Counted from the stretch's first letter, positions 41,520-57,972 are shown. The stretch: DNA of 64,000 nucleotides from Methanobacteriota archaeon (GCA_963719035.1 CAVRAO010000006.1:64001-128000); one strand, 5' to 3'. Made by a program: numbers and translations. Notes: generated by a model not told the origin, from the letters alone.

Positions 41520-43862
41520 TCAGACAGTGCGTCCGAGAGCGATCCGGTTACGGTCCTTGAGCTCCTGCTTCTTGCCTTCGTTCCAACTTGAAACCGCGCT
41601 CATGTAGCCAGTCACGCGGGCGATATGTTCGACGTTGTGCGAACCACAGTTGGCACATTCTTCGTGAAGACCCCCCTCGACGTGTGCGTCATCGAGGCAT
41701 AGCGTCAGATCCCGCCCCGGCGCGAAGTATCCGATCTGCGTATTCTTGACGATGTTTAAACAGAGCTCCATGAGCCCTATAGGGTCAGGTTTCGCCTCCC
41801 CTAAGAAGATGTGTGTTAAATCTCCGCCGTCAAAGCAGTGGTAAAAGACCTCCTCGTAGCGGAGTCGATCAAAGAGGTCCACATTGGCGCTCACCGGGAT
41901 ATGCGTACCGTTTGAGTAATAGATGGGCAGATCGCGGGACTTGTCCTTTATATATCGTTTGATCGCTTCAGAGACGTTCCCCTCAACGACACGGCGACAC
42001 TTATCCGTAAACTCAGGGTTGAGGAGGTCAGCAACGGCGAGGCGTTGTGCACTCGATTCTGCAGGTGTCCGTGCCAAGGCGATCTTGATGCCGTGTTCGC
42101 TTCCAACCTGTCGGCAGTATGCCTGGAGCTCGGTCATGGCCCGTATCGCGAGTTCCCACGCTGCAGGATCTTCGTGTATGGCCGACCCGGTATGATACTT
42201 AACGGCGTCGTTCACCCCAACCACGCCGATTGTGTAGACGAGGCTGTCGAAGTCGTAGAGCTGCGGCCCTCGCTCCCCCGTGTTCGGGTCACGCGGGTGC
42301 TGTTGCAAGAACGGAAGCCGATTGCCCTTGATGAGCGGTTCCATCCACTTGCGCTTAATCAGGAAGAACTTGACGGCGCAGTCGACGAGGTTCTTGAGGT
42401 TGTCGATAAACGCGTCAGTGTCGTGTTCGGCCTTATACGCCGCACGTGGGACGTTGAGCGTGACGACATGCCACGAGCCCATCGAGAAGTGGGCGCCGTT
42501 TCTAAAGTAGAGCTTATCATCAAAGTGCTGATCTTCATCCCTATCGACCTTGAACATGTAAGCGCAACACTGGTAGCAGGAGACGCCCTTTCCGGCTCCC
42601 CGGTACTCCGGTATCATGTTGTCAAAGTAGGTCGAGCCAAACTCCGCAGAGAGCTTAAAGGCGGCCTCGTAGTTATCTTCAAGGGTGGGTATCTCTGGGT
42701 GGCCGTAAAAAACGTCCTCGGTGCGTGGCACGATAAATGAGGGCTCGATCGCCACCTCGGGCTTCGGGAAGTTAAAAGGCTTTCCCCAATTGTCGCCCGC
42801 CGTCATGACCTCCATAATGGCCTTAAAGCCGAGACGCACCTCGCGTTCAAACTCACCGTAGGTCCGTAGGGGCGCCTGTTCGCCGTCCCAGACCTTCCCG
42901 TGCAACACGATGGGTTTATCCTTCCACAGCTCGGGGACGCCGGGGGTGAGCTGGAGACTGCTGAAGACCATCTGTCCGCCGCGCGCGATGAACACCTGCG
43001 TGAGCTCATAGACCGTCTCTTGCATGAGCTGCTTGATCTGTGTATAATCCAAGTGTTCAAGATGGGGGGCCAAAAAGGTCAAGAAGTTGTAAAAGCCCTG
43101 TCCGCCCGCGCAGTTCGTTTGCCCAGCGGCGAGCGCCTTGACGGCGTGAAGGATGGCGACCTCGGGGCTCTTTGCAGGGCCGGCGACGGATGCATGTGCT
43201 CCGGTCCCGTCGGGCATCAGGCCGTAGTAGAGGAAATAACGCAGGTCGTAGTCGGCACAGAACGGCCGCACGTTTGCGTACTCCATGTCGTGAATGTGAA
43301 AGTCTCCCGAGCGGTGGGCGTCGCCGATGCTCTGGGGGAGCATGAGTAGCACTTGCTGCTTGCTCAGCTTATCGTGTTTCTTCTTGGCCGACGTTTCGGG
43401 GTTTGCAGTCAGATTAGAGTTCTCATTTGCCTCGAACCCCTCGCCATGGTCAATGCGGTAAGCATCATAGAGAGACGTTCCCACTCGTGAGCACGCACGC
43501 GCCCACTCGCCGAACCCCTCCTCAAGCAAGACAACGTTGACAAACTCACGAATCAGCGGTCCGCTCAGTTCGTGGACGTCCATCCGTTTAATCTTCTTCT
43601 CAACGATATCCGCGATGCGTCGCGCCTCAGCACGCTTCATGCCACGCTTCCCATAAAACGTCTGCGCGAGCGCCGTTTCACGAAGGAGCTGCTTTATGAT
43701 CGCTTCGCTGTTCCACGGGAGGATAAACCCGTCACTCGTCCGGACGTTGGGCATGTCTTCGGCTTGTTCGCCAAAGAGCGTCGTCTGGAGGCTGCGGGGT
43801 TGAAGCATCGGGAGCAATGACTTCTTCGGGGTGTTATTTCTCTTTCGTGTAGATATGGCCAT
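41520..43862 (-). CDS. nrdD: anaerobic (class III) ribonucleoside-triphosphate reductase with ATP cone
   Basis: ATP cone (IREFVNVVLLE), HIHD, YQCC, TPAES, YYSNGTH, glycyl-radical motif RVTGYM. Confidence 0.95.
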   Translation of the reverse strand: MAISTRKRNNTPKKSLLPMLQPRSLQTTLFGEQAEDMPNVRTSDGFILPWNSEAIIKQLLRETALAQTFYGKRGMKRAEARRIADIVEKKIKRMDVHELSGPLIREFVNVVLLEEGFGEWARACSRVGTSLYDAYRIDHGEGFEANENSNLTANPETSAKKKHDKLSKQQVLLMLPQSIGDAHRSGDFHIHDMEYANVRPFCADYDLRYFLYYGLMPDGTGAHASVAGPAKSPEVAILHAVKALAAGQTNCAGGQGFYNFLTFLAPHLEHLDYTQIKQLMQETVYELTQVFIARGGQMVFSSLQLTPGVPELWKDKPIVLHGKVWDGEQAPLRTYGEFEREVRLGFKAIMEVMTAGDNWGKPFNFPKPEVAIEPSFIVPRTEDVFYGHPEIPTLEDNYEAAFKLSAEFGSTYFDNMIPEYRGAGKGVSCYQCCAYMFKVDRDEDQHFDDKLYFRNGAHFSMGSWHVVTLNVPRAAYKAEHDTDAFIDNLKNLVDCAVKFFLIKRKWMEPLIKGNRLPFLQQHPRDPNTGERGPQLYDFDSLVYTIGVVGVNDAVKYHTGSAIHEDPAAWELAIRAMTELQAYCRQVGSEHGIKIALARTPAESSAQRLAVADLLNPEFTDKCRRVVEGNVSEAIKRYIKDKSRDLPIYYSNGTHIPVSANVDLFDRLRYEEVFYHCFDGGDLTHIFLGEAKPDPIGLMELCLNIVKNTQIGYFAPGRDLTLCLDDAHVEGGLHEECANCGSHNVEHIARVTGYMSAVSSWNEGKKQELKDRNRIALGRTV

Positions 43863-44333
43863 TCGCCCACCTTTTTATAACTAATATCGCAGGAGCGAAA
43901 CGCAGTCGATTCGTTTGATGATGAATGTCAAACTCTTATTTAGATGGATAGTTGCTCAAGTGTGTCGATGCATGGCGGGAAAAACTCCCGCCGAATATGA
44001 CTCCTGCTAACGGTGTAATAGTTGATGCTTATTACGATATTCCATGCAACGCGATAGTAAATCAATGTTGGGATTTGTAACGCATTCATACCCCTCGCTA
44101 TCGCTGGTCGTCAGTGAGCTGTTTGAAAGCGAACGATCCGCCTTTCTCTTAGTCGCGTTTCTCGCCACAGCGACGTTTTCTTTGCTCCTGCGAGCTCTAG
44201 AAGAGCTTACGACGCTTTCCCTTTGTTTTCTCGTCGCACGTCAGCCACACGGCTAAGCCCTGAAGAAAGCGCTGAGCGGCAAGCGTGCAAAATAGAGACC
44301 GTTTGTCGTTGGGCGCTTATCGACTTGGCGGTG

Positions 44334-44708
44334 CTAGTCGGGATAGGGCATTGAGAGCGTGTTTATAGCGAAATCAGGACTGAACCCCTTTATACTCTCA
44401 TCGTCAACGTTCAGGACGCTCCAGCTGATCACGTCTCTAGCTAAACGCTCGACGTGAACTGATGGCAGCGCATAGCGTTTTAGTCGCCGTCGGTAGGACG
44501 AATGGGCCGCCCGACATTGAGCGTCCCAATACGCCTGGACATGGTTGGGCGCTCGCACGTTCGTCGTCTTATAACGTGACGCGTCACACGCACATACATC
44601 CACATCGTGATCAAGCTGGTAAGAGTTCGGAGCAAATAAAAAACGACCGCACTTTACGCACCCGAATACCGCGAGCTTAACGTGCCGTTTTCCGTGAACC
44701 AGTGCCAT
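44334..44708 (-). CDS. hypothetical protein with putative Zn ribbon
   Basis: SD AGGAG; VFGCVKCGRFLF...VCAC. Confidence 0.6.
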   Translation of the reverse strand: MALVHGKRHVKLAVFGCVKCGRFLFAPNSYQLDHDVDVCACDASRYKTTNVRAPNHVQAYWDAQCRAAHSSYRRRLKRYALPSVHVERLARDVISWSVLNVDDESIKGFSPDFAINTLSMPYPD

Positions 44709-45104
44709 CTAATCTCCTGTTTAGTCAGAATCAAATCGAAAACAAATTAAATGAGATAGACGGTACAAATACCGAGGTGTGAGGGCTTTAGCGTCTTTCA
44801 ATCCATAGCTGGAGCCCTTCGTCTACCCATCGCTTTGCTTTCGCGTGACCTTTTTTGTGAGCCTAACTTTGACATGTAACCCTTAGGGTGGCACCGCTAT
44901 TGGCTGCTGAGGTGATAAGCACTTCTCTCAACTAACAAGGAGAACATCGATCAGTAACGCGCTTTTTAAGCTTTTTGTTTACGTGATAAGGGAAAAATAG
45001 AGCTTGATGTGGCCAATAACAAAAAAGCTCCACTAAATAGCTTCCAAAGAGAAACAAGAGTGTTGAGCTTGGGCGTTACGGTATATCTTTCCTGCTGCTG
45101 CCAT

Positions 45105-45401
45105 TTAGCATCGCAATAAGCTCAAGATAATATCGATGTTCAGCTCATCGTTGGGGAAAAGATCCTCAAACGTCAAGAACGTGTCTTTGACCTGCAGCAC
45201 CGGTGCCATCGTCGTAAAGACGCCCTTCATAAGCAAAGTCGTCCGCGACTGCGGCGAGTCCAAGTCGTGCTCTTCAAACGAGATGCCGTGTTCTACAAGG
45301 GATTTTTTCAGGACAGTACAATTGGGACAGACGGGCAACGTGTACACGTTCACGGTTTGCTTCGTTTCTGGTGTTATCACAGAAGTCCTTACGGTACTCA
45401 C
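45105..45401 (-). CDS. NrdH-like glutaredoxin (true start may be GTG 45380)
   Basis: VYTLPVCPNC, APVL cis-Pro loop; upstream of nrdD on the same strand. Confidence 0.85.
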   Translation of the reverse strand: MSTVRTSVITPETKQTVNVYTLPVCPNCTVLKKSLVEHGISFEEHDLDSPQSRTTLLMKGVFTTMAPVLQVKDTFLTFEDLFPNDELNIDIILSLLRC

Positions 45402-45596
45402 TTTTATAAAAGCCTTTCATATTGAGATATGCCCTTTCATACTGTCCCACTTTGATGCGTCTCGCGCAGTGCCCTTGGCCGAGCATTGCAACTTAGGTAT
45501 TTGAGGTTGTAAAGAGAACAGGACCTTAATTAAATCGCGTTTGCCGATTTGCAGCGCTTAAACTGCGCTTGAGACGTGTTGAAACGAACGGGTGAA

Positions 45597-46115
45597 CTAT
45601 TCGAAGGTTCGCGTCAGCTCGCCTTGCTGCACAAATTCGTCCAGCTGCCAGATGAATTTGCCCTGTGCAGCGCGATCTTGATAGTCTATAAATATATCCG
45701 GTGGGTTCCCTTTGAAGCGTTCATAGGCACCGCCGGCTCCATAGGTGACGCCGGCGACTTTGTACCCGCTGTTGATCTGGAGGACGTATGCTGAGGCCGC
45801 TTTCGTTGAGAAGAAGCGGGTTATCGTGAAGGTCTCTTGATAAGTGGCATTTTTGCTGGCGTTATCTTGTTGCGGATAGGTGTACGCCCACGTGACCTTC
45901 GCGGCGGTTGAATTGAGCCACGTGACCCTCCAGGTCGTCAAGTTTTGAGGGTGCTCTTCTTGTATCGTTTGGTGCAGAATATCGAGGTACCCCTCGAGCC
46001 TTGAGTCGTGAACGAAGCCTTGTGCGTCAGTGTTTGACGTTTGGGTGCAGCCTGCAACGAGAACTGCTGTAAGCGTGAGGAGGACGATAATGCTGCTCGT
46101 GACCATTTGTTTCAT
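45597..46115 (-). CDS. hypothetical lipoprotein
   Basis: Signal peptide with lipobox LVAGC; directly downstream of the large PKD gene. Confidence 0.75.
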   Translation of the reverse strand: MKQMVTSSIIVLLTLTAVLVAGCTQTSNTDAQGFVHDSRLEGYLDILHQTIQEEHPQNLTTWRVTWLNSTAAKVTWAYTYPQQDNASKNATYQETFTITRFFSTKAASAYVLQINSGYKVAGVTYGAGGAYERFKGNPPDIFIDYQDRAAQGKFIWQLDEFVQQGELTRTFE

Positions 46116-46167
46116 GAGAGTGCCACGTTATGACGCATTGATCACGTTAACCTACTACAAGAGCAAA

Positions 46168-49100
46168 CTACGAGGCGCTGCAGATGTTCGATTCCTCTTT
46201 GCCAAAGACAATTATCTGATCAGCTTTGTAGAGCTTGTACGAATCGTTGCCCGCTTTCACGTTGATGTTAACGAGGCCGTGGTTCACCGGTGAACACCCG
46301 CCGCTGGCCCAGTCCTTGGAGGTCATGGTCGAATTGACCGTCAACGATTCCCCAGGTTGAAGGATGAGCTTCTTGCCCGCAACGTTGCCGACTGACGAAG
46401 ACTGCTTGCACACAAGCGCCTTGAGTTGTGTGGCGTTGGTCGTCGAGACTTTGCTCGTCGTTTGGTTTGTGCGGTTATGGCTTGTCAGATACTTGTTCCT
46501 GACGGACTTTCCGACGACGCCCGTCGCGTTAGTTTTGGTTGTCGCTTCGCTTGTCGTCGGTATGTTGAGCGTAGATCCGATGAAATCCAAATGAATGCCA
46601 GCGGCGTTGTGCCTCGTGCCGTCGCTCAACACCGTATTAGCGGAAGCCGAGCCGCTACACGTCGTGCAGTTCTGTTCTGCGGCAAATACGAACGGGGCAC
46701 TCGTGCCAGTCCGGTTAACGTCGCACCCGTAGAGAGAGATGTAAGGCGAGACTTCTATCGGGATGTCTAACGTATTCTTTATATCCCACTCCATGTGGAC
46801 CAAGCCGGTGTTGGTGTCGCGCACGAGCCTGAACCCGTCGCCCTCATAGGTGATGACGCCGTCCGCTTCGTATTTTTCAAGGCCGATTATTTCGTGAGGC
46901 GGCGCGGAGTTTGGAGCGATTTGGTATTCGTCTGTAGGTGTGGGCGTAGGGGCTGGAGCTTCTGGGGTTGGCGTCGGTTCAGGAGTCGGGATTGGAGTTG
47001 GTGTCTCTGGGGTTGGCGTTGGTGCAGGTGGAGGGGCGCTAACCGTGATGCCGTGAGTGACCGAATCGGTCGCGCCGCCGTTGTCGGTAACGGTCAGGGT
47101 GACGGTGTAACTACCGGCCGTGTTATACGTGTGGCTGGGAGACTGTGCCGTTGAAGAGGCCCCGTCGCCAAAGTCCCATCTATATGAAGTAATTGACCCG
47201 TCGGAATCAGAAGATGTAGAGCTGAAGGCGATTGTGCCACCTGTTTGCACTGAAGTGGGAGAAGCTGTGAAGGCGGCGTTCGGAGCGGCATTTGTCGCGG
47301 TGACTGTGACCGTATCTGTACCTGTAACCCCATGGTCGTCAGTAACCGTGAGGGTGAGTCCATATGATTCGGTTGTGGATGTAGCAGGGGTTTGAAGGGT
47401 GGGGGTGGCGGTGTCAGCGCCGGAAAGGGTGGGGTTACTGCCCGCGGGTTTGGAGGTGATGACCCACGCGTAGGTGAGGGTGTCGTGGTCAGGATCGGTG
47501 CCAGAACCGCGGAGGGTTACTGAGGTGCCGGCGTGAATCGTCTGGGCGGGGCCGGCGTTTGCAGTCGGCGCATGGTCGATGATGACAAGGGTGATAGTGT
47601 CGGATCCAGTGGCGCCAGTGGGGTCTTTAACGGTGACGGTGACCGGATAGTTGCTGAAATCGGTGGCACTAAAAGTGGCGGACGTGCCGTCGGCGCTGGG
47701 GGTGAGCGTTCCTCCTGATGCGACGGGCGCCCAGGTGTAGGCGAGGGTGTCGCCGTCAGAGTCGGAGGTCGCGGTAGTGAGGGTAATGGTGGCGTCGTTG
47801 TGCGCTGTAGCCGCGGGAGACGCAGCGAGCGTTACAGAGGGTGCCGTGTTTCGTGTGTCGGTTGTGAAGCGGTGGTGAGAGTGACCGGGTTGGCGATCAC
47901 GTTATCGAGGGAGCCGGGGCCGCTCGTGAGTGCCCAGGTGTAGGTGAGGACGTCTCCCGCGTCGAGGTCGTGGGCGGCGCCGGTGATCTGGGCGGTTTGT
48001 GCCGGCGTGGACGGCTGACTGCGGTGGCGGTGTCAATTATGGGCGGCTGGTTCACCGGCACGACGACGTCGCCGTAGCCGACGATTTGTCGTTTCCGAAG
48101 TTGTCTCTAACAGTCGACTTCACGCTGTACATGCGCATCAGCGAATACGTTGGTCGAAGTGCGCTCGTTGACGTATGCGACTCGCCAAAGTCTGAAAGCA
48201 CTGGTAGATGAAGCCTCCGTCATTAGGATCTGTTGAAGTGGACGTGAAGTTGACCTGTTGCCCGGCTTCCGGTGAGGTAGGCTCGTAGGCGAAGTTGGGG
48301 ATAGGTTTATTCGAATGACCAGCCGCGACAACGGTTACCGTTCGAACTGTTGTATCATCAGACCCGCTTCCGTCGCGAACTGTACAGGTAGATAGTGTAG
48401 GGACCCGCACTCGTGAAAGTGTGAGTTCTAGTAGGGTTGGTGCTAAAATTCAGCCAATTGCTTGGTGTGTCGAACCTCAATCCGACGTTGACGATTGGAC
48501 CGACTGAATCACTCGCATCGAATGTGATCGGCTGCCCCGCCACCGGCGATATAGGCGTATAAGTGAATTCGGCCAAGAACTGCTGATTGAGCGTGCACGT
48601 CAAAGCTAAGGAGCCACGTTTGATCACATGCGCAATCGGCACCTGTACATGGATATTGTGATTGTGATCATTGAGACGACGCGTTGATGTGTATGTTATA
48701 GTGGCAACACCGTTCTCGTCAGTCATCGGAGGAGTAGTGCCGTAGGGGGTCATCGTTAGGATTGTTGGAAACAAAATAGACCTACATTCTGGAGCCGGAA
48801 GCTGGTAGGTAGCGTTAATGACTGTAACGGAGATTGTGTAAGGCGTATTTATATTTACATCGAGCGTCGGAACGTTGATGACGACTTCATAACCGTAAGG
48901 GTCGATAACGACAACCGAAACGGGATTGCTCGTGAGTTGAGTCCCGTTAATAGAAGTTGACGCCTCGAACGTATATGTACCAGGTGCGTTTTCAGTGACC
49001 GTGAGAGATGCGGAGCCACCTGGGCCGGTGGTTGTGGTTCCTTCGCGACCCGTCAGTGCTCGAAATGCTGACAGCGTGGCCTGATAAGGGGCTGCCGTTG

Positions 49101-50257
49101 TGATTAACGAGCGCAGCCGTGAGGGCAAACGGCTTCCCAGCAACCACTTTCAAGGGGGCGCTGAGGGTAAGCGCGGGATCCTCTTGCGCCTTAATAGCAG
49201 TAGCGGAAGCAGCAGCAGGGGTTATCACAGGGATGATGCGGACAAGGAGCGGGTCACTGGCATAGCGGCTCGCACCCACCGTGGCGACAGCCTGGAAGGT
49301 GACGTTCCCAACCTCCGACTCGGTGCCCGTGAACGTCGCTGAACCGTCGCTTGCAGTAGTCGCGGTGCCAACCGTGGTGAAGCTATTGCTACCCGTAGCG
49401 CGCTGGAAGGTGACTGAAACATTCGTTAACGGCGTGCTGTTGTTAACGAGCATCGCGATAAGAGTAAACGATTGGTTAACTGTTGCGTCCGCAGGGCCCG
49501 TTAAAGTGAGCACCGGGAGAACTCCGCTGACGCCCAATGAGTCGATTATGGTCGATGAATTATTAGACGCCTGAGGGACAGACGCGTTAGACTGTGGTGT
49601 CGCCGTGGGAGAACCGCTTGGCGTTGGAGAGGGTTCCGGTGATGCTGACGGAGAAGGGGATGTCGAAGGTTGTAGTGAAGGCGATAGTGACGGTGTTGGC
49701 TGCAGGGCGTGAACGGTAACAATAATCTCATTGCTCGTGCGGGTGGTGCCAGCGTCATCGATGCGGGCGGCCCACGTGACGGCGTGTGCTGTTGGATCAC
49801 TGTGCGAAAATGAGGCGACACCGCTGCCATCGGTCGTCGCGGTCCCAATTACGACGCCGTCAGCAGTGAACGTAACGGGCGTGTCAGAGCGGGGATTCCC
49901 GATGGCCTCTTTAAGCGTAGCGGTGAACGTGAAGGACTCATTGACATTCACGTCAGCTGGGCCTTGAAGCGTGAGTATTGGCGGTAAAGATGGGGTCGGA
50001 GAAGGCGTGGAAGTTGGAGAAGGCGTGGAAGTTGGAGAAGGCGTGGAAGTTGGAGAAGCAGAAAGCGAAGGTGACGGTGAGGGTTCTGGAGACGGAGTCG
50101 CCGTCGCGAGCGGTGTAGCACTCGCTGATGCGAGCGGAATAGTGGCCTGCGTGGTGTCTGCCGCACTCGTTTTAACTATGCTAAACGCACCGTTGCCGTA
50201 AAGGATCGAAACTAGGAGTACTACAACTAGTAGTACTGCAGAACCCTTATGTGCCAC
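46168..50257 (-). CDS. large secreted Ig-like/PKD multidomain surface protein (about 1350 aa), split by several frameshifts in this sequence
   Basis: GGTGGTGA then GTG; signal peptide, P/S/T linkers, Big-like domains (TDGSGVASF, TDENGVATI), PKD domains (FDASDS, PTANAGP..TI, SYRWDFGDG...YTVTLTVTD); ORF pieces 48992-50257, 48358-49143, 48107-48410, 46168-47250 join up. Confidence 0.8.
49998..50058. repeat. 18-bp tandem repeat x3 encoding a (PTSTPS)n linker
   Basis: GAAGGCGTGGAAGTTGGA at 50001, 50019 and 50037. Confidence 0.9.
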
Positions 50258-50754
50258 GTCACCACCTACGCGATACGAGTTGCCGTTTGACTACAATATT
50301 GCTAACTAACTACAGTCTTGTCGCCACTGTTAGAGTATAATCAATCTCCTAGGCTCATATATATAAATGACTGTGACAGGTAAATGTGACAATTACATGA
50401 TAAGCAGTATAGTGCTGCAAAATCTGCAAAAAACCGTGAGCATCCACTTCCTGAAAGCTGGGCGATACTGAGGCGGCGAATCGAAAAAACAGGGGTTTCT
50501 CACTCGTAACAACGAGTTTGATTACATCCCCTTCTCTTTTATCGAGTCAGCAAAAACCGGAGTAACGTCGATAAGATCCGCTTTGCACAGCGCGCTTCGC
50601 TGCGCCGAAGAGATGTCATATCGTCCCGAGCAAACTTTTTATACTCTCACGAGAGCTATCGATACGAACAATTTTTCAACACCGCTAATCATCCGAAAAA
50701 CCTAACCAATCAAGTGGGGCTCTCGGACGGACGCTAACAACCCGGGGTGATGAC

Positions 50755-52217
50755 ATAGCAAAACTGTCCTCCAATTATACCGATGATGATGCATCCTCTG
50801 AGCTATTTGCACTAAGTGCCGCTCTTGCGCACCGGCGTGCCCGCGACGACGTCGAGCACGGCGAGATCAAAGAGTTCGCACGGACGAAGCTCAAGGAGTA
50901 CTGGACTGAAGCGCGCCAGGGCCCCCCGAATTCATGGACCTTCTACCGTATGGGTTTGGCCTATCTGTACCTCAATAAGCCCTATCCGGCGTTTGCTGCG
51001 TGTGCTAAAGCCCTTCAGCTGAGCGGGTCAGAGCTCGTGCTTGACGCCGCCTATGACGCGCTAAGCGCGCTCGACGAGTGCGAAGAGGGACTTATCGGAT
51101 GCGAATGGCTGCGCCGATTGCTCCTCATCGGGGCCGCAGGAAGATTCCAATCAATGAGCGCGCTCGCGCGCGTACAGGTGGTGGCGTCGAACGCACCACC
51201 AATTAAACCCCCCGTCACGATTTTCGCGGGCGGGTGCAGAGCAGACGATCAAGGGTGTCTCTTGATTTATCGCCCACTCGTGCTTCAAGCCTTTAGCACA
51301 TACACGGGCACGATCATCTCGGGAGGCACAGCCTCCGGCGTGTGCAGTCTCGCTGGAGACTTGCAAGAAGCGTGGCCAGAGTCCATCCACACAATCGGCT
51401 ACGTCCCTCGCGATATGACCGAGGTGCCCATAGACGATCGCTATCGTGAGATACGATACACACCAGGTGCCGAATTTAGCGCCACAGAGGTCATCCAGGT
51501 ACTGGTGCGATCTCATCGCTTCCGGCGTGCCACCGGCACACGTTAAGGTGTTCGGCATCGACGGCGGCTCGATATCAGCGAGCGAATATAAAATGGCGCT
51601 CGCCCTCGGCGCTTCCGTTGCTTTGCTACATGGAAGCGGACGCGAGGCGAAGAAGATTCTACATAATCGCCAATGGCGGGCCTCACGAGGGCTCATATGT
51701 GTTCCCGTCGATCCTTATGTGATCGAGGAATTCGCTAAGCCACACCCAGTGCAACTCGACCCAACCGATAGAGAGCGGTTGGCGCGTGTTATACATGAAG
51801 AGTATCGGGCCAGTGAACAGGATCTCACAGCCGGACGATCCCGCTATTGCTTCTTGGGATGAACTTCCGAGCTACCTCAGACACTCGAATCGAGCGCAAG
51901 CCGATCGTGTCTGTGAGAAGCTACAGCGCATCGGATGCTCTATCGAGAAGTCAGGGAACAAGACGCCGGTGACCGAGTTTACCCCTGAAGAGCTCGACAT
52001 CATGGCGCAAATGGAGCACGGCCGGTGGGTAATAGAGCGCCTCGACGGCGGCTGGACGTCTGGACCGCGAAGAGACTTACGGCAGAAGATCAGTCCCTAT
52101 TTTGTCCCGTGGCCTATGCTGTCAGAGGACATAAAGAACAAAGAGCGCAAGATGGTTCGTAACATACCACAGCTCCTTGCAACGATCGGCTTACAGGTAT
52201 GCGAGACGCGCGAGTGA
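50755..52217 (+). CDS. TPR-like + SLOG (LSDAT/TRPM-like) + RyR domain protein (about 485 aa; two frameshifts, near 51499 and 51815; probable ATA start)
   Basis: TPR-like WTFYRMGLAYLYL...AF...AKAL; SLOG IFAGG, IISGGTASGV...AG, GG.IS..EY..ALALG..V..L.GSGREA; RyR LARVIHEEY, WDELP..LR.SN..QA, MAQMEHGRW..ER...GW..G......KISPYFVPW..LSE..K. Confidence 0.8.
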
Positions 52218-52454
52218 TAGTCACATCCAGAGCGTTTTGCGCGCTGTCACTTGGCAGGTTTGCACGCATCACTTTTTGTACTGGGAGTACGCTAACAAGG
52301 CACACGCCATTAAGCCAGGCGCGCGCGCGATGATTTTGCTTATCCACAACAGAATGGAGCTCGTTAGTCTGAAGCTGAGAGATCGTGTTCTGTCAAGAGC
52401 TGCGTTCGATTGCCGAGCGTTCGCCCGCCGCGCACAACGGGGAAAGGTGTGATT

Positions 52455-53639
52455 ATGGCGCCGTCATATGCTGAGACGAAAGATCAAAGCGTGGTCAGCG
52501 GCGACTATTGCGCCGGGCTTCAGGAACCAACAGACGATATGCACGACACCCCCGAGGAGATGGCGCAGTGGGGACCGCTTGCTGCCGCTCTCCAAAGCTG
52601 CCAAGACATCGTCGAACCGGCGTATCAGGCGGCGGATCACACGGCTGTGCACTTCCAGAGACAACATCAGGCCATTACCGTCGCGGCCGCCGTCTTCGGT
52701 ACCTTCGCTGTCCTTTTTGCGATCCTCCAGCTGCCCCGAATTATCAGCGGATTTGTCGTATCGATTCCCGTAGCTGAGGGCATCACGGCGGCAATCGCGT
52801 TCATAGCGGTCCTGCTCGGCATCTTCACGCTTCGACAAGTGAGGTGGATGTTCCTCCGCCATAAGGCTGAGCGGTTCAAGTTCCTCAAGTTCCACTTTTT
52901 GATTGACCCGCATCTTTGGGGCGCCGACCCCGACGAACGGGAACGAACGGCGCAATGGCTCAAATACTCGGCTAACAAGATCGCCGAACTGACGAACGAG
53001 GAGCTGGAGACCTGGGCAGAGCACGGCATCCTCCCAGAAGAGTCGGCCAGCTTAGCAGGCAGCAAGGCCGATGCGTACACGTTGTACAAGCTCGTCGATT
53101 ATTACCTAACCAAACGCTGCAGAAATCAGCTGAAGTATTTTGAACGCAAGGCCCAGCAGTTTTCAAGCAGGGATCGCTACATTAAGGCGTTGCCTCGCCT
53201 TCTGTTCTTTGGGAGCATTTTTGCCGCGCTGATGCACTTCTCCCTCGACCTTTTCGAAACGTACCTCCTCCCGCACGGGGAGGTGGCGGCTCAGACCGCC
53301 GAAGCGGCGACAGAGACTGCACCCCCCATCAACCTGACCGTGGCTTTGATCCTCGTTGCCGCTTCGCTCCCCGTCATCGGAGCGGGCGTCCGGACGTTCC
53401 GATCGGCCTACCAGCTCGCCCGCAACACGAGCCGCTACAAGGCGGCTTTCGAAGCGATCAAGCTGCCAGCCGAACGACTTGAACTTGATGCCGGACGCCT
53501 CTATGGACTCTACGCTGAGGGGCACACGGCAGTCGACGCCCACGACGTCTTTCGCGACATGTGGCGCTGTGAGCAGATCTTAGAGGCCGAACATCGCGAG
53601 TGGTTGCGCTTAATGATGGAAGCCGACTGGTTTGGCTAG
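52455..53639 (+). CDS. double SLATT (DUF4231-like) membrane protein
   Basis: AD..A..FQR + 2 TM + W...R.KAE; then R...QL.YF..KA + 2 TM + RY...E..EW; SD AGGTGTGA. Confidence 0.78.
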   Translation: MAPSYAETKDQSVVSGDYCAGLQEPTDDMHDTPEEMAQWGPLAAALQSCQDIVEPAYQAADHTAVHFQRQHQAITVAAAVFGTFAVLFAILQLPRIISGFVVSIPVAEGITAAIAFIAVLLGIFTLRQVRWMFLRHKAERFKFLKFHFLIDPHLWGADPDERERTAQWLKYSANKIAELTNEELETWAEHGILPEESASLAGSKADAYTLYKLVDYYLTKRCRNQLKYFERKAQQFSSRDRYIKALPRLLFFGSIFAALMHFSLDLFETYLLPHGEVAAQTAEAATETAPPINLTVALILVAASLPVIGAGVRTFRSAYQLARNTSRYKAAFEAIKLPAERLELDAGRLYGLYAEGHTAVDAHDVFRDMWRCEQILEAEHREWLRLMMEADWFG

Positions 53640-53718
53640 TCCAGAAAAAAGCGCTTAGAAGAACGAAAAACGTCAAAAGGCGCTCTGTGGCGGCGGAATC
53701 GCCGATCGCGCATACAGC

Positions 53719-53735
53719 CGAAAAGCTTAATATAA
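53719..53735 (+). promoter_or_regulatory. BRE-TATA promoter of the TIR gene
   Basis: CGAAAAG-CTTAATATA about 65 nt upstream of ATG 53801. Confidence 0.5.
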
Positions 53736-53800
53736 GAAGCGATCAACAAGCTTGAACAATTGTTTGTCACTAACTGCCACGGTATGTAAACTGGTGTACC

Positions 53801-54835
53801 ATGGGCGATAACATCTTCATCAGCTACTCTTCAAAAAATAAGGCCATCGCTGACGCCGTTTGTCATAAGCTTGAAGAACGGAAGATGAAATGCTGGATTG
53901 CGCCTCGTGACATCCTGCCTGGTGCAAATTACGCTGAAGAGCTCATTAATGCTATTGATAACAGCAAGCTCTTTGTGCTCATTTTTTCCAAAGACTCGAA
54001 CCAGTCACAACACGTGCTTCGAGAGTGCGAGCGCGCCGTCTCCCACGGGATTCCTATCATTCCGTTCCGCATAGAGGACGTGCTTCCCGGCGCTGCGCTG
54101 CAATACTTCATCGGGCCACAGCATTGGCTCGATGCGATAACTGCGCCGTGTGACGCTCATATAAATCGCCTCGCTGATACTGTTAACATTCTCCTTACCC
54201 AAGAAGACCTCACGCAGAAGAGCGCCGGCGAAATGCTCGCTGATGCCGAAGCGCTCGCGGTACAGCGGCAACAACAGGTCACAAAGATGAAGCGGACCAC
54301 GATGGTGCTCGCTGCCGCGATAGTCGTGCTCGCCGTTATCGGCGGTGGGTGGTTTATTTCTCAACAGATGAGTCAGGCGAGCATGAACCTCGTGCCGTAT
54401 GTGAACGCTGCTGCTGGATTCAAGATGGAAGCCCCGCAAGGATGGGAAAAGGTTGATCGGACACCCACTACCGACAATCCAATAGCAGCGATTTTCTATT
54501 TGCCGACGAATAATAAGTCCGAACAAGTTAACATCATAGTGACGCCGGCAGAAGGTGCCGACTTTGATAAGGTGACGACGACTAACCTGGATAACGCACA
54601 AACGTTGGTGGACAATAAAAAGATCGACATGATCGAGTCAAGCGAAACCACGTTAGGCGGTCAGACGGCGTACAAGATCGTCTACAACAATAATGCCGCC
54701 GGCTTGAGGAGTATGCAAATCTGGACCGTCAAAAACGATACGGTCTACCAATTCACTTATAACGCGCAGCCACAGCACTACAACGATTATATTGCGACCG
54801 TCCAAAAGATGGTCGACTCGTTCCAAATCACGTAA
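53801..54835 (+). CDS. TIR domain - single TM - PsbP/DcrB-like extracellular domain protein
   Basis: IFISYSS, CWIAPRDI.PG..Y...I..AI, S..V.RE (catalytic-Glu position), QHWLDA; TM MVLAAAIVVLAVIGGGWFI; Y.N...GF.M..P.GW...TTLGGQTAYKIVY...MVDSFQI. Confidence 0.88.
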   Translation: MGDNIFISYSSKNKAIADAVCHKLEERKMKCWIAPRDILPGANYAEELINAIDNSKLFVLIFSKDSNQSQHVLRECERAVSHGIPIIPFRIEDVLPGAALQYFIGPQHWLDAITAPCDAHINRLADTVNILLTQEDLTQKSAGEMLADAEALAVQRQQQVTKMKRTTMVLAAAIVVLAVIGGGWFISQQMSQASMNLVPYVNAAAGFKMEAPQGWEKVDRTPTTDNPIAAIFYLPTNNKSEQVNIIVTPAEGADFDKVTTTNLDNAQTLVDNKKIDMIESSETTLGGQTAYKIVYNNNAAGLRSMQIWTVKNDTVYQFTYNAQPQHYNDYIATVQKMVDSFQIT

Positions 54836-55149
54836 TTGGCGCGCGCGCCACGGAAGGTGCCTTTTTCTTTCTCAACTCACTATTTGGACATTTGCCTTCG
54901 CTTTAAACATCAGTTAAAAGGCGCCAAGGCGGTTCACGATCCAGCGGGCTTATCCAATTGTTTAGTTCATGTGGGGTCGCTGACTTAATAGGCTCGACGG
55001 TCACTTTAGCGGCTAGCGTTATGTCTATGCGTAAACGGCATAGCGGCGTTCAACAGAAACGTTTATGAGGGTAAACTCTGTCTTTTTTCCGCATGGTGCT
55101 GCGCTTTGCAGCAACAGCTACGTTACGTAATTTTCACAAGGCGATCAAG

Positions 55150-56525
55150 ATGAATGACGACAGCAACTTAAAAAGCCTCCTTGCTGATTTAGGGAGTTCG
55201 GAATGGCACACGAGAGTTGAGGCCGTGCGAGCGCTCCGTAAGCTCGGCGACAAGCGTGCCGTGGAGCCCGTCATTGGTACGTTGAGCGACGAAAACAAGG
55301 TGGTGCGCAAGTACGCGGCATACACGCTCGACAAGCTCGGCGACAAGCGTGCCGTGGAGCCGCTTATAACCACGCTAAGCGACGAGAGCACGAGCGTTAG
55401 GAGCATGGCAGCTCAATCACTCGGCCACCTCGGCGATGCGCGGGCCGTTGAGCCGCTTATAGATTCCTTGAACGACGAGGAATGGCTCGTTCGCGATGCA
55501 GCAGCACATGCGCTCAGTCACCTCGCCGACAAGCGTGCCGTGGAGCCGCTCCTTACTGCAATCAACGACGAGCACTGGTTCGTTCGCGAAGCCGCAGTGC
55601 GCGCTGTTAGCAAGTTGGATGATGAACGGGCCCTGGAACCGCTCATTTCCGAGGCGTTTAATGACGAGCACTGGTTCGTTCGCGAAGCCGCAGTGCAATC
55701 GCTCGCATCGCTTGGCGACCCGCGGGCCGTTGAACCACTCATCACGATTGTGACGAGTCCAAAAAGCGACGCGGAGAGAAGTACCATGGGCGACATATAC
55801 GTTCGAAAGGCGGCGGCACAGGCGCTGGGCACGCTCCACGATAAACGAGCTATGGAACCGCTCATTGTCGCGTTGACCGACGAGTACCCGTAGTTCGTGA
55901 AGAAGCAGCCCGTGGTCTCGGTCAGCTCCACGATAAACGCCCTGTTACTCGACTTATCCGCGCGTTGGACGATGAATATTGGACCGTCCGCGAAGCAGTA
56001 GCACGCAGTCTTGGCCAGATTAATGACGACCGGGCCGAAGACGCCCTCTTTGACACCGCTGTGGGCAACCGGCCCTGGATTCGTGACCTGGATGACCAGG
56101 ACAAGTACGTGCGCAGTGTGGCGACACACTCCCTCTGGAAAATGGGCGATATGCGCGCCATCGATGCGCTGATCGACAACCTGCAGAGCGAGGATCGCTT
56201 TGTGCGCAAAGCCGCAGCTGAAACGCTTGGGGAGCTCGGTGACAACCGCGCGGTTGATCCGCTCGTTGATGTTCTCGCCAATTCTGATAGCAACGACCGA
56301 GCGCACGCAGCTGACGCGTTAGGCAAGATCGGCGATGCGCGGGCCGTTGAGCCGCTGATCCACGCCTTAGGCAATGAAAATTCGTCAGTTCGTAACTACG
56401 CAGCTTACGCCCTCGGTCAACTCAAAGATCCGCGGGCGATCGATCCGCTCACTCGAGCTTCTAATGATGTTGACATCGACGTCCGAGATTCCGCTGCTCA
56501 CGCATTGTGGAGGCTTCAACGCTGA
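55150..56525 (+). CDS. PBS-lyase/HEAT repeat protein (single-base frameshift near 55890)
   Basis: About 13 VR..AA.ALG.LGD.RAVEPLI..L.D units; reading resumes as VREEAARGLGQLHDKR in another frame across the TAG. Confidence 0.88.
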
Positions 56526-56756
56526 AGAGAGTGTCTCTCGCTTATAGTCGCGCGACTTATTCGTACCTCGACCGCGGGCCCCCCTCAAGACCTATTTAGC
56601 CCGCTTTAGGTAAACAACGTTCTTTTTAAGGCGCGGTTTGAATAAGAGCCCAGAGCAGAAGTGGTCAGAAAAGTTAATCAAAAAAAGACCTGCAAAATCT
56701 TCCTCAAGCGGCGCACAAACTGCTGTGCGCCAAGTTTAGGCTACATGTCGTTTCTC

Positions 56757-57267
56757 TCACGCCGCAGAAGCTTTGATTCCCTTCTCAAGAGTTGAGACAA
56801 AGTTCTGGACCGTTGGGATGTGTTTTCCTTTTACAACCTCTTTCGTTGTCGTGTAGAAAGTCGCGACCGGAGGCTTACCGGCGAGTTCCTGCATATCCTG
56901 CAGCGTGGTCTTATTCCCAGAGAAGTCATAAGTGCAGAAGAACGCAGCGTTTTTTACTTTGCCAGCGTTTTGCACCATGTTACGTCCTAAGTGCACTGGC
57001 CACTGTATACGCCCATACCGGGCCGCCAAGTATTACGACGTCATACGACGAGGGATCGTACATCGTCGGCTTGATCGGAACCTCTTTCTTTTCTGTCGAC
57101 TCTTGGTAAGAGAGTTTGTAGCCTGCAGTGCCCGCTCGATTGGTGGGATCGATGAGTTCCTCTAAGTCACATTTGAACGCCGTCTGTTGTCCAATAGTGC
57201 TCATAACCGTTCTCGCAACCTTTCTTGCCGTTCCGGTTCTAGAATAGTATGCGATGAGGCACTTCAT
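56757..57267 (-). CDS. flavodoxin-like protein (one extra base near 56981)
   Basis: YYSRTGTARKVA, YDVVILGGPVW, AFFCT; ACG-TAA-C-ATG becomes T-Y-M on removing one A. Confidence 0.85.
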
Positions 57268-57444
57268 AAGTTTAGACGGTGCCTGAAATCCTATTTAACT
57301 TTTTCTAGACCGACCCAATCCTGGATTTATCGCAAAAAGAACGAGTTGTAACTGCAGCACTGTTGGACACTGTTATCGCTGAACGCGACCCGCACCGCTC
57401 GAGTGATCGGGGACACCTGTGATCAGCGGCCGCGCCTTTAAACG

Positions 57445-57972
57445 TTAAGCTAGCAATGCCTTTCGCACTTCCCGCGCGTTTTCCTGGCTCGTCAGCACTG
57501 TTACAAGATCGATAGCAAAGTCGATGGCGGTTCCCGGTCCCTGGCTCGTGATGATCTTGCCGAAGTGCACTACCCGCTCTTCAACACGTCGCGCGCCCGC
57601 GATTTCGATTCCTGGAAAGCACGTCGCCGTCGCCCCTTCCATGATTCCTGCAACGCCGAGCACGTGCGGCGCAGCGCAAATCGCACCGACGTATTTGCCT
57701 GCGTCGTATGCTGCGCGTATAAGCTTCAATACGCGTTGATCGCGTTCGAGGTTGATATAACCGGGGTTCCCCCCTGGAAGGACCAAGGCGTCATACGTCT
57801 TGACGTCGTCGATAGAGAGGTCCGTCATCACCTTGATCCCGTGCCCACCTTCTATAGGCGAAGGGGCTATACCAGCAAGGAGGACCGATATGCCCGCACG
57901 GCGAAGGACGTCAACAATCGTGACCGTCTCGAGTTCTTCAAATCCTGGGGCAAGAAGGACAACTACATTCAT
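57445..57972 (-). CDS. DJ-1/PfpI (YajL/ThiJ-like) family protein
   Basis: GFEELE, DVLRRAG, LPGG.PG, AICAAP, TSQGPGTA. Confidence 0.93.
   Translation of the reverse strand: MNVVVLLAPGFEELETVTIVDVLRRAGISVLLAGIAPSPIEGGHGIKVMTDLSIDDVKTYDALVLPGGNPGYINLERDQRVLKLIRAAYDAGKYVGAICAAPHVLGVAGIMEGATATCFPGIEIAGARRVEERVVHFGKIITSQGPGTAIDFAIDLVTVLTSQENAREVRKALLA

Follow-up and report, generated by a model that had tools for sequence, protein, structure and literature searches.

Three adjacent genes of an uncultured peat methanogen raise the question of what an archaeon does with a protein that joins a TRPM-type SLOG domain to a ryanodine receptor-type (RyR) domain, and what that protein has to do with the SLATT membrane protein and the membrane-anchored TIR protein encoded next to it. 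The genes occupy positions 50755-54835, on the + strand, of a 64,000-nucleotide (nt) stretch of DNA from a Methanobacteriota archaeon (GCA_963719035.1, CAVRAO010000006.1:64001-128000), referred to below as the window, and had been picked out from the sequence alone as a candidate signalling system (the original prediction). Linkage of RyR, SLATT, and TIR genes recurs across phyla, as detailed below. The answer favored by the sequences, with a probability of roughly 0.55, is a Thoeris-like nucleotide-signalling system in which the membrane TIR protein would be the signal maker, the SLOG-RyR protein the sensor, and the SLATT protein the membrane effector.

Domain architecture of the three proteins

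The locus has the layout that had been claimed for it, namely, three consecutive + strand genes, coding for a TPR-like/SLOG/RyR protein, a double-SLATT protein with four transmembrane (TM) helices, and a TIR-TM-PsbP protein, which are separated by 237 and 161 base pairs (bp), in agreement with the gaps of 160 to 240 bp given earlier. The SLOG, SLATT, and LSDAT domains were reportedly defined by Burroughs et al. in 2015 (Nucleic Acids Research [NAR]). In what follows, the genome of this organism is called G000, and its same-genus relatives G002, G007, G010, and G014 represent different species.

The first gene (50755-52217) is spread over three frames (50755-51498, 51500-51832, and 51834-52214), with single extra bases at positions 51498 and 51833, and all three pieces are free of stop codons. 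The pieces are colinear with residues 1-248, 249-359, and 361-487 of the uninterrupted 487-amino-acid (aa) orthologue from G007, with 422 of the 486 aligned codons being identical, which bears out the view that the gene becomes visible on joining the three frames. An AlphaFold2 model of the G007 orthologue, based on 34 homologues (predicted local distance difference test [pLDDT] score, 89.7; predicted template modeling score, 0.89), served for assigning the domains. The N-terminal region (50755-51186) is predicted to consist of TPR-like helical repeats, which correspond to helices at residues 12-143 of the model; TPR_1 matches it weakly (E values of 0.098 for the window piece and 0.0049 for the G002 orthologue), and TPR_2 matches the RelA_SpoT-containing paralogue encoded in the same genome with an E value of 4e-7.

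The following segment (51202-51748) was assigned to the SLOG domain of the TRPM/LSDAT type. The Pfam family LSDAT_prok stays below its cut-off in the two pieces into which this segment is split in the window (E values of 0.036 and 0.0085) and passes it in uninterrupted orthologues (29.6 and 29.2 bits versus the cut-off of 25.4), and both motifs quoted in the original prediction, SGGT..GV and GG.I...E...GSGR.A, are present. Residues ∼140 to 331 of the model could be aligned by VIA-align with the LOG/SLOG structure 1rcu (Z score of 17.5 over 160 residues; root mean square deviation of 2.5) and with the N-terminal region of TRPM4 and TRPM2 (Z scores of 15 to 16 over 184 to 190 residues). A middle domain with some other fold would have refuted the original prediction; as modeled, this domain is a SLOG fold.

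The C-terminal segment (51758-52214) encodes a RyR Repeat12-like domain, recognized in the window by Pfam RyR with 53.6 bits (cut-off, 27.4; E value of 2.7e-14) and above the cut-off in the uninterrupted orthologues as well. Its sequence matches RyR1, RyR2, and RyR3 in the PDB with E values of about 1e-13, and Foldseek aligns it with Repeat12 of human RyR3 (E value of 1.2e-6 over about 195 columns). Model residues 317-486 align by VIA-align with 6uhi, the whole two-repeat R12 domain, with a Z score of 14.2; Pfam detects one RyR repeat. The RyR repeat named in the original prediction is therefore recovered both by the Pfam score and by the Repeat12-like fold of the G007 model.

The second gene (52455-53639) codes for a membrane protein of 394 aa if translated from the ATG codon, or of 409 aa if translated from a TTG codon at 52410. 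Judged by a simple hydropathy threshold, it contains four hydrophobic helices in two pairs (window positions 52671-52826 and 53199-53390), each pair making up a two-TM hairpin (residues 88-139 and 264-327 in the numbering of the 409-aa protein). This protein alone scores below the Pfam cut-offs for SLATT_1 (22.5 bits versus 26.3), DUF4231, and SLATT_3. Its family comprises 75 homologues at E values of ≤0.001, with a very conserved C-terminal motif, and 19 of the 23 members scanned match SLATT_1 at E values of ≤0.01 (best, 1.1e-10), with DUF4231 matched in 11 and SLATT_3 in 8, so that the proposed two SLATT-like units correspond to two hairpins with SLATT_1 support at the level of the family. 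The AlphaFold2 model (pLDDT score, 83.5) consists of long helices and has no Foldseek match in the PDB at E values of ≤0.001, the best hits (0.04) being ABC transporters and alpha-pore-forming toxins. Complex prediction for the SLATT protein and the RyR part of the G007 orthologue returned a score of 0.00 (mark, 0.32).

The third gene (53801-54835) encodes a 344-aa protein with an N-terminal TIR domain (53813-54139; TIR_2 E value of 4.2e-22), a single TM helix (54302-54358; residues 168-186), and a C-terminal PsbP-like domain (54386-54829; E value of 2.3e-11 in Pfam), the last of which had not been named previously. In an alignment with the TIR domain of 6wt6, Glu75 falls on the conserved Glu and so occupies the position at which the catalytic residue had been reported to be retained; in TIR NAD+ hydrolases, this conserved Glu is the catalytic residue. 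The TM helix is preceded by Lys and Arg residues, which fits a topology with the TIR domain inside and the PsbP domain outside.

Additional TIR genes are found elsewhere in the same genome. Three of them stand in a row (G000:C12:278424-282669) and encode a TIR-TM protein with a further C-terminal domain, a TIR-TPR protein, and a TIR-TM protein with a Pro/Thr-rich tail; both membrane TIRs carry Gln at the position of the conserved Glu of gene 3. A TIR-STAND NTPase is encoded at C12:119088-120884.

Recurrent linkage of RyR, SLATT, and TIR genes

Scanning species-representative genomes with the SLATT alignment yielded 62 loci, 3 from this genus and 59 from outside it, the latter mostly from Acidobacteriota, Planctomycetota, and Verrucomicrobiota, with additional ones from Dehalococcoidales, Nitrospirae, and a Methanoperedens (gene calls in this survey were crude, and the neighborhood profiles were built from few sequences of this analysis). 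A RyR domain is encoded in 52 of these loci, mostly in the form of a protein of about 95 to 110 aa just upstream of the SLATT gene. In 8 loci, it is fused to the N terminus of the SLATT protein, and in 6, it forms the C terminus of RelA_SpoT-TPR-SLOG-RyR proteins, each time in the company of a NUDIX gene. Ten loci lack RyR, and in at least 3 of them, the SLATT gene lies at the end of a contig or close to it. It is RyR, not SLOG, that consistently accompanies this SLATT family, and the chief reason for regarding RyR and SLATT as a single working unit is the existence of the RyR-SLATT fusions.

TIR genes were detected in 23 of the 62 loci, and DUF4062 genes were detected in 3. The TIR genes cluster next to the SLATT genes: 19 of 233 genes at rank 1 or 2 from SLATT encode TIR domains, versus 5 of 487 further away (odds ratio of 8.6, with the crude gene calls and loci that are not fully independent). 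RyR and TIR_2 are the commonest Pfam families among the immediate SLATT neighbors, with RyR accounting for 28 and TIR_2 for 9 of the 60 upstream ones and TIR_2 for 10 of the 62 downstream ones. The conserved Glu is present in all 25 TIR_2 proteins of these loci. The hydropathy threshold applied to the window proteins also predicts a TM helix after the TIR domain in 18 of 24 TIR open reading frames (ORFs), followed by regions of varied size; PsbP is found solely in the archaeal TIRs, and TPR, FGE-sulfatase, and DUF4440 domains are found in others. Had SLOG-RyR homologues never occurred with SLATT or TIR genes, the proposed circuit would have lost its basis; these figures, together with the presence of the whole trio in three more species, show the opposite.

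In three loci from Terriglobia (L032, L042, and L044), the TIR genes located upstream of RyR-SLATT fusions encode proteins of about 690 to 710 aa in which the TIR domain is followed by six or seven predicted TM helices instead of one; these look like polytopic membrane TIRs.

The putative ligand pocket of the RyR domain

Phage proteins with RyR domains provide a reference for the pocket. According to the available text of the respective preprints, they bind 2′ cyclic ADP-ribose (2'cADPR) and 3'cADPR, both of which are cleaved by RyDEP (PMC13232231), and RyR Tad binds 2'cADPR, 3'cADPR, and cADPR (bioRxiv 10.64898/2026.06.04.730250); the same texts name the contact residues of the two proteins. 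Counted from the first His, the contact positions are His (0), Trp (+3), Lys/Arg (+18), His (+25), and Asp (+42). Of the 34 small RyR proteins encoded beside SLATT, 32 retain the complete set, as do all 8 RyR-SLATT fusions, and the pocket of these bacterial partners looks ligand-competent. In the window protein and its G007 and G010 orthologues, His, Trp, and Arg are retained, position +25 is Ser, and position +42 is Glu; the G014 protein also has Ser at +25. The pocket thus appears altered in the archaeal protein, in which sensing may fall more to the SLOG domain.

Conservation within the genus and the RelA_SpoT-containing paralogue

Full-length matches to the SLATT query were found in 4 of the 17 other genomes of this genus, including the G014 variant; many of these genomes are 60 to 90% complete. 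G007, G002, and G010 keep the order of the SLOG-RyR, SLATT, and TIR-TM-PsbP genes, followed by the genes for HEAT-repeat, flavodoxin, and DJ-1 proteins, so that three further species share the neighborhood of the trio. Gene 1 is uninterrupted in G007 (487 aa) and G002 (507 aa) and split in G010. The G014 locus consists of a NUDIX gene, a gene for an 850-aa RelA_SpoT-TPR-SLOG-RyR protein, a SLATT gene that overlaps or abuts it, and a TIR-like DUF4062 gene that is truncated where the contig ends. In G006, G008, and G017, DJ-1 is present and the block does not stand beside it. The distance from NrdD to DJ-1, which in the window span 41520-57972, ranges from 3.6 to 62 kb across the species compared (the window versus G006, G008, G010, and G017), which identifies this region as variable. 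The block of SLOG-RyR, SLATT, TIR, HEAT, and flavodoxin genes beside DJ-1 comes and goes as a unit.

Gene 1 is homologous, with 40 to 45% identity, to the C-terminal two-thirds of RelA_SpoT-TPR-SLOG-RyR proteins, an intact 843-aa member of which is encoded on another contig of the same genome (G000:C8:142930-145461; L008:6931-9462). A NUDIX gene ends 43 nt upstream of this paralogue, and a PsbP_2-like gene converges on it from downstream. No match to the SLATT family was detected among the neighboring ORFs scanned, and the genome carries only one SLATT gene of this family. It may be that the paralogue feeds this single SLATT protein in trans. The RelA_SpoT domain and the NUDIX partner, present in the C8 paralogue and in G014, are absent from gene 1 of the window and from its G007 and G002 orthologues.

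Integrity of gene 1

Comparison of the DNA with three same-genus orthologues shows that the window has one additional G at about position 51498 and lacks two bases at about 51831. Contigs from four public sequencing runs were compared over positions 50600-56600. Two of them, X1 and X3, which come from two samples of two studies, have, at full contig depth, one base fewer at each of positions 51498 and 51833. Gene 1 thereby becomes a single frame, which differs from the relatives by 3 bases without loss of frame. The identity of X1 and X3 to the window is 98.5 to 99.7% (99.7% at the gene 1 breaks). They also have an additional C at 55886 that rejoins both HEAT-repeat ORFs, and all three sites, 51498, 51833, and 55886, are homopolymer-length differences (GG versus G at both sites in gene 1). 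The ratio of nonsynonymous to synonymous substitution rates (dN/dS) relative to G007 is 0.18 for gene 1 (486 codons), 0.12 for the SLATT gene, and 0.07 for the TIR gene. Gene 1 is under purifying selection and, if two single-base length differences are set aside, is complete. Four breaks fall within three of six neighboring genes, which argues for assembly error, and the breaks in gene 1 are probably assembly indels. The worry that gene 1 has decayed and has no intact relatives is thus met from both sides, by the intact G007 and G002 orthologues and by X1 and X3, which do not have the breaks.

Split genes are seen around the trio as well: a HEAT-repeat gene (55093-56525), a flavodoxin gene (56760-57267; whole, with 169 aa, in G007), and a large gene for a PKD/Big surface protein (46168-50257) that is divided into at least four ORFs. 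The single-contig genome G010 has a one-base insertion of its own (L018:7290-7300), located 3 nt from the extra G of the window (51495-51505); the two insertions flank the same GTAC and may stem from a recurrent error of long-read sequencing where the motif is modified. A 263-aa ORF of G007 with matches in three window frames was not counted, as it overlaps a gene on the opposite strand and may be spurious. Across the genome, 268 pairs of overlapping long frames were tallied among 3764 frames, a figure that was set aside for want of a calibrated baseline.

Promoter-like boxes and genomic setting

Each of the three genes is preceded by a promoter-like sequence. A box resembling the factor B recognition element (BRE) and the TATA box lies before gene 1 (50630-50644) and is near-identical in the DNA alignment of four same-genus loci; a T-rich box lies before the SLATT gene (52270-52281), with its T-rich core conserved in all four; and a BRE/TATA box lies before the TIR gene (53719-53736), conserved in G000 and G007 and partly in G002 and G010. 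These boxes may act as promoters, and the last of them corresponds to the separate promoter that the original prediction had tentatively assigned to the TIR gene. The gene 1 box and the SLATT box are alike (a T-rich core and then TAC), and the TIR box differs from both; the likeness hints at coregulation limited to gene 1 and the SLATT gene.

The other genes of the window are ordinary ones, coding for surface proteins, NrdD, HEAT repeats, flavodoxin, DJ-1, and BacA. No tRNA gene was found in the window, and there is no shift in composition at the locus; neither, therefore, marks a recent insertion.

Predicted mechanism and alternative explanations

In the proposed signalling system, the TIR protein would be anchored in the membrane with its TIR domain in the cytoplasm and the PsbP-like domain facing outward. 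A cue at the cell surface would cause the TIR domains to associate and to convert NAD+ into an ADP-ribose-derived signal, which the soluble TPR-SLOG-RyR protein would bind by way of SLOG, RyR, or the two together. In the signal-bound state, this protein would switch on the double-SLATT protein, and the resulting disturbance of the membrane would lead to growth arrest or cell death. We infer the identity of the signal, the domain that reads it, the contact of SLOG-RyR with SLATT, and the antiviral purpose. Several features of Thoeris systems are present, namely, a TIR domain with the conserved Glu, adjacent SLOG and RyR domains, which belong to kinds reported to bind TIR-made signals (10.64898/2025.12.03.692087 and PMC13232231), and linkage of TIR and effector genes in unrelated genomes.

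Several observations weigh against this interpretation. PADLOC (the 2023 release, which does not include the newer Thoeris types) produced no match to ThsA and nothing above chance for genes 1 and 2; the matches of the TIR protein to ThsB models are weak (E values of 7e-4 to 3e-3), its best TIR model being SAVED_TIR (9e-9). No TIR gene is found within about 8 kb in 39 of the 62 SLATT loci. The window RyR domain differs at two of the five contact positions, the phosphate-binding His being replaced by Ser and the Asp by Glu. A promoter-like box before each gene and gaps of this size indicate that the trio is not a tight operon, and no other recognizable defense genes were found among its neighbors in the window. 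Conservation within the genus may be a matter of simple descent. Coding conservation of gene 1 begins at 50755, with ATA in the window and TTG in G007, and the first canonical in-frame start is at 50950, which leaves the start codon ambiguous. Finally, X1 and X3 represent a close strain, or the source organism with differences, and there may be a real strain-specific break in gene 1.

The best-surviving alternative, itself unlikely, is that the same circuit serves physiological outside-in signalling, such as response to envelope stress, cell contact, or control of dormancy, rather than antiviral defense. The lack of recognizable defense genes beside the trio would be expected in that case, and so would the receptor-like build of the TIR proteins, whose extracytoplasmic domains vary from PsbP here to TPR, FGE-sulfatase, and DUF4440 elsewhere, with two more membrane TIRs bearing other ectodomains in this very genome. 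However, a block that is found by the SLATT query in 4 of the 17 other genomes of the genus (counting the G014 variant), and that is missing beside DJ-1 in G006, G008, and G017, in the variable region between NrdD and DJ-1, is typical of accessory defense genes, and a combination of TIR and SLATT is a proven anti-phage system according to the main text of a recent preprint (10.64898/2025.12.03.692087).

Somewhat less probable is a role of the RyR domain as a buffer or a glycosidase that clears stray signal and sets the threshold, with SLATT (as proposed for ThsH) or SLOG serving as the receptor. Of the 42 small or fused host RyRs, 40 retain the residues of the dyad, and in type VII Thoeris, according to the same main text, the SLATT protein alone responds to cADPR (10.64898/2025.12.03.692087). 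Yet the window protein has Glu in place of the dyad Asp and Ser in place of the phosphate-binding His, and fusion of RyR to the SLATT N terminus in 8 loci, and to SLOG sensors elsewhere, is the usual layout of a sensor placed on an effector.

It is less probable still that the TIR gene is an independent neighbor and that SLOG-RyR and SLATT respond to some other nucleotide, such as a product of the RelA_SpoT domain of the paralogue. The widespread ancestral form appears to be a RelA_SpoT-TPR-SLOG-RyR protein with a NUDIX gene; this genome keeps such a pair at C8, with no SLATT detected beside it and a single SLATT of the family overall; and the TIR gene has its separate promoter-like box. Nevertheless, loci with RelA-bearing proteins also contain TIR genes (L026, L027, and L071) or the TIR-like DUF4062 (L022), the clustering of TIR genes next to SLATT extends across phyla, and the TIR gene stands beside SLATT in 3 of the 3 same-genus loci in which its position can be read.

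The idea that the cluster is dead in this strain, with gene 1 truly frameshifted twice and the block decaying, finds some backing in the three frames of the window sequence as given, in the G010 insertion 3 nt away, and in the substitutions by which X1 and X3 differ from the window and so are not an identical genome, but it is highly improbable given the homopolymer nature of the gene 1 sites, the length difference at 55886 that rejoins the HEAT gene, the split of flavodoxin relative to G007, and the stop-free, selectively constrained frames of gene 1.

Relationship to known systems

Among characterized systems, the one closest to the signalling system proposed here is type VII Thoeris, which, as described in the main text of its preprint, consists of the ThsB TIR protein and the ThsH SLATT effector, with canonical cADPR as the signal (bioRxiv 10.64898/2025.12.03.692087); the SLATT protein of the window is likened to ThsH by description and not by sequence. 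In both cases, a TIR gene adjoins that of a SLATT membrane protein, and the predicted logic leads from a TIR-made ADP-ribose-derived signal to a membrane effector. Type VII Thoeris, however, is a two-gene system in which SLATT alone is effector and receptor, whereas the window has SLOG-RyR as a third gene and 52 of the 62 SLATT loci have RyR; most relatives of this SLATT have a small or fused RyR instead of SLOG-RyR. Further differences are the double SLATT with four TM helices, the membrane-anchored TIR with an outside domain, and the archaeal host. The term "RyR" is absent from the main text of that preprint, whose supplementary tables may list related candidates. Type I Thoeris, which according to the introduction of the same preprint combines the ThsB TIR protein with the SIR2-SLOG protein ThsA and uses 3'cADPR (10.64898/2025.12.03.692087), resembles the locus in having a SLOG domain as the reader of the TIR product. 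Here, in contrast, SLOG is of the TRPM/LSDAT type and is joined to TPR-like repeats and RyR rather than to SIR2, a membrane protein of its own would be the effector, and the PADLOC models of ThsA do not match.

Phage RyDEP and RyR Tad share with gene 1 the Pfam family PF02026, the R12-like fold, and the His, Trp, and Arg/Lys contacts, and most of the small bacterial RyR partners of SLATT share all five contact positions with them. Those proteins, however, are viral counter-defense sponges or glycosidases, whereas the protein described here is host encoded, lies beside the gene for a predicted membrane effector, and has two contacts changed. Similarity to the N-terminal region of animal TRPM2 and TRPM4 and to Repeat12 of ryanodine receptors extends to the fold and sequence of the SLOG and RyR parts, but these are here soluble domains of one small protein, and its SLATT membrane partner is unrelated to those channels. 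The RelA_SpoT-TPR-SLOG-RyR proteins with their NUDIX partners, uncharacterized and annotated in databases as guanosine tetraphosphate (ppGpp) synthetase/RyR domain-containing proteins, are alike in their homology to gene 1 and, in G014, in being encoded directly before SLATT; they differ from the window protein and its close orthologues, which have neither RelA_SpoT nor NUDIX.

TIR-SLATT neighborhoods, and SLATT as a predicted membrane effector regulated by ADP-ribose derivatives, have already been described in the accessible text of two earlier papers (PMC9503650 and PMC7159879). No paper naming both SLATT and RyR was found among the matches listed in the literature searched, and the accessible part of the RyDEP preprint (PMC13232231) makes no mention of transmembrane or host-encoded partners. 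The new elements are the archaeal host, the separate soluble SLOG-RyR protein together with a double SLATT, the PsbP ectodomain, the count of 62 loci, and the apparent descent of the SLOG-RyR gene from RelA_SpoT-bearing forms.

Implications

Signalling by TIR plus SLATT and binding of cADPR isomers by phage RyR domains are each known from preprints of 2025-2026, and the connection on the host side was not found in the literature searched. The locus described here and the 62-locus family suggest that hosts use RyR beside or fused to SLATT, often together with a membrane-anchored TIR. A tentative proposal, which is doubtful as it stands, is that RyR Repeat12-type domains, accompanied here by a TRPM-type SLOG, were the original cellular receptors of TIR-made signals of the cADPR type and linked these signals to membrane effectors, that the ADP-ribose and cADPR sensitivity attributed to animal TRPM2 and ryanodine receptors would descend from prokaryotic modules of this sort, and that the partner TIRs of bacteria and archaea would be true transmembrane receptors for something external to the cell, in the style of Toll-like receptors. 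The questions raised concern the RyR fold as a receptor of TIR products, outside-in signalling by prokaryotic TIRs, and the origin of the ligand modules of two families of animal calcium channels. For the organism itself, the locus extends a TIR/SLATT-type system to methanogenic archaea.

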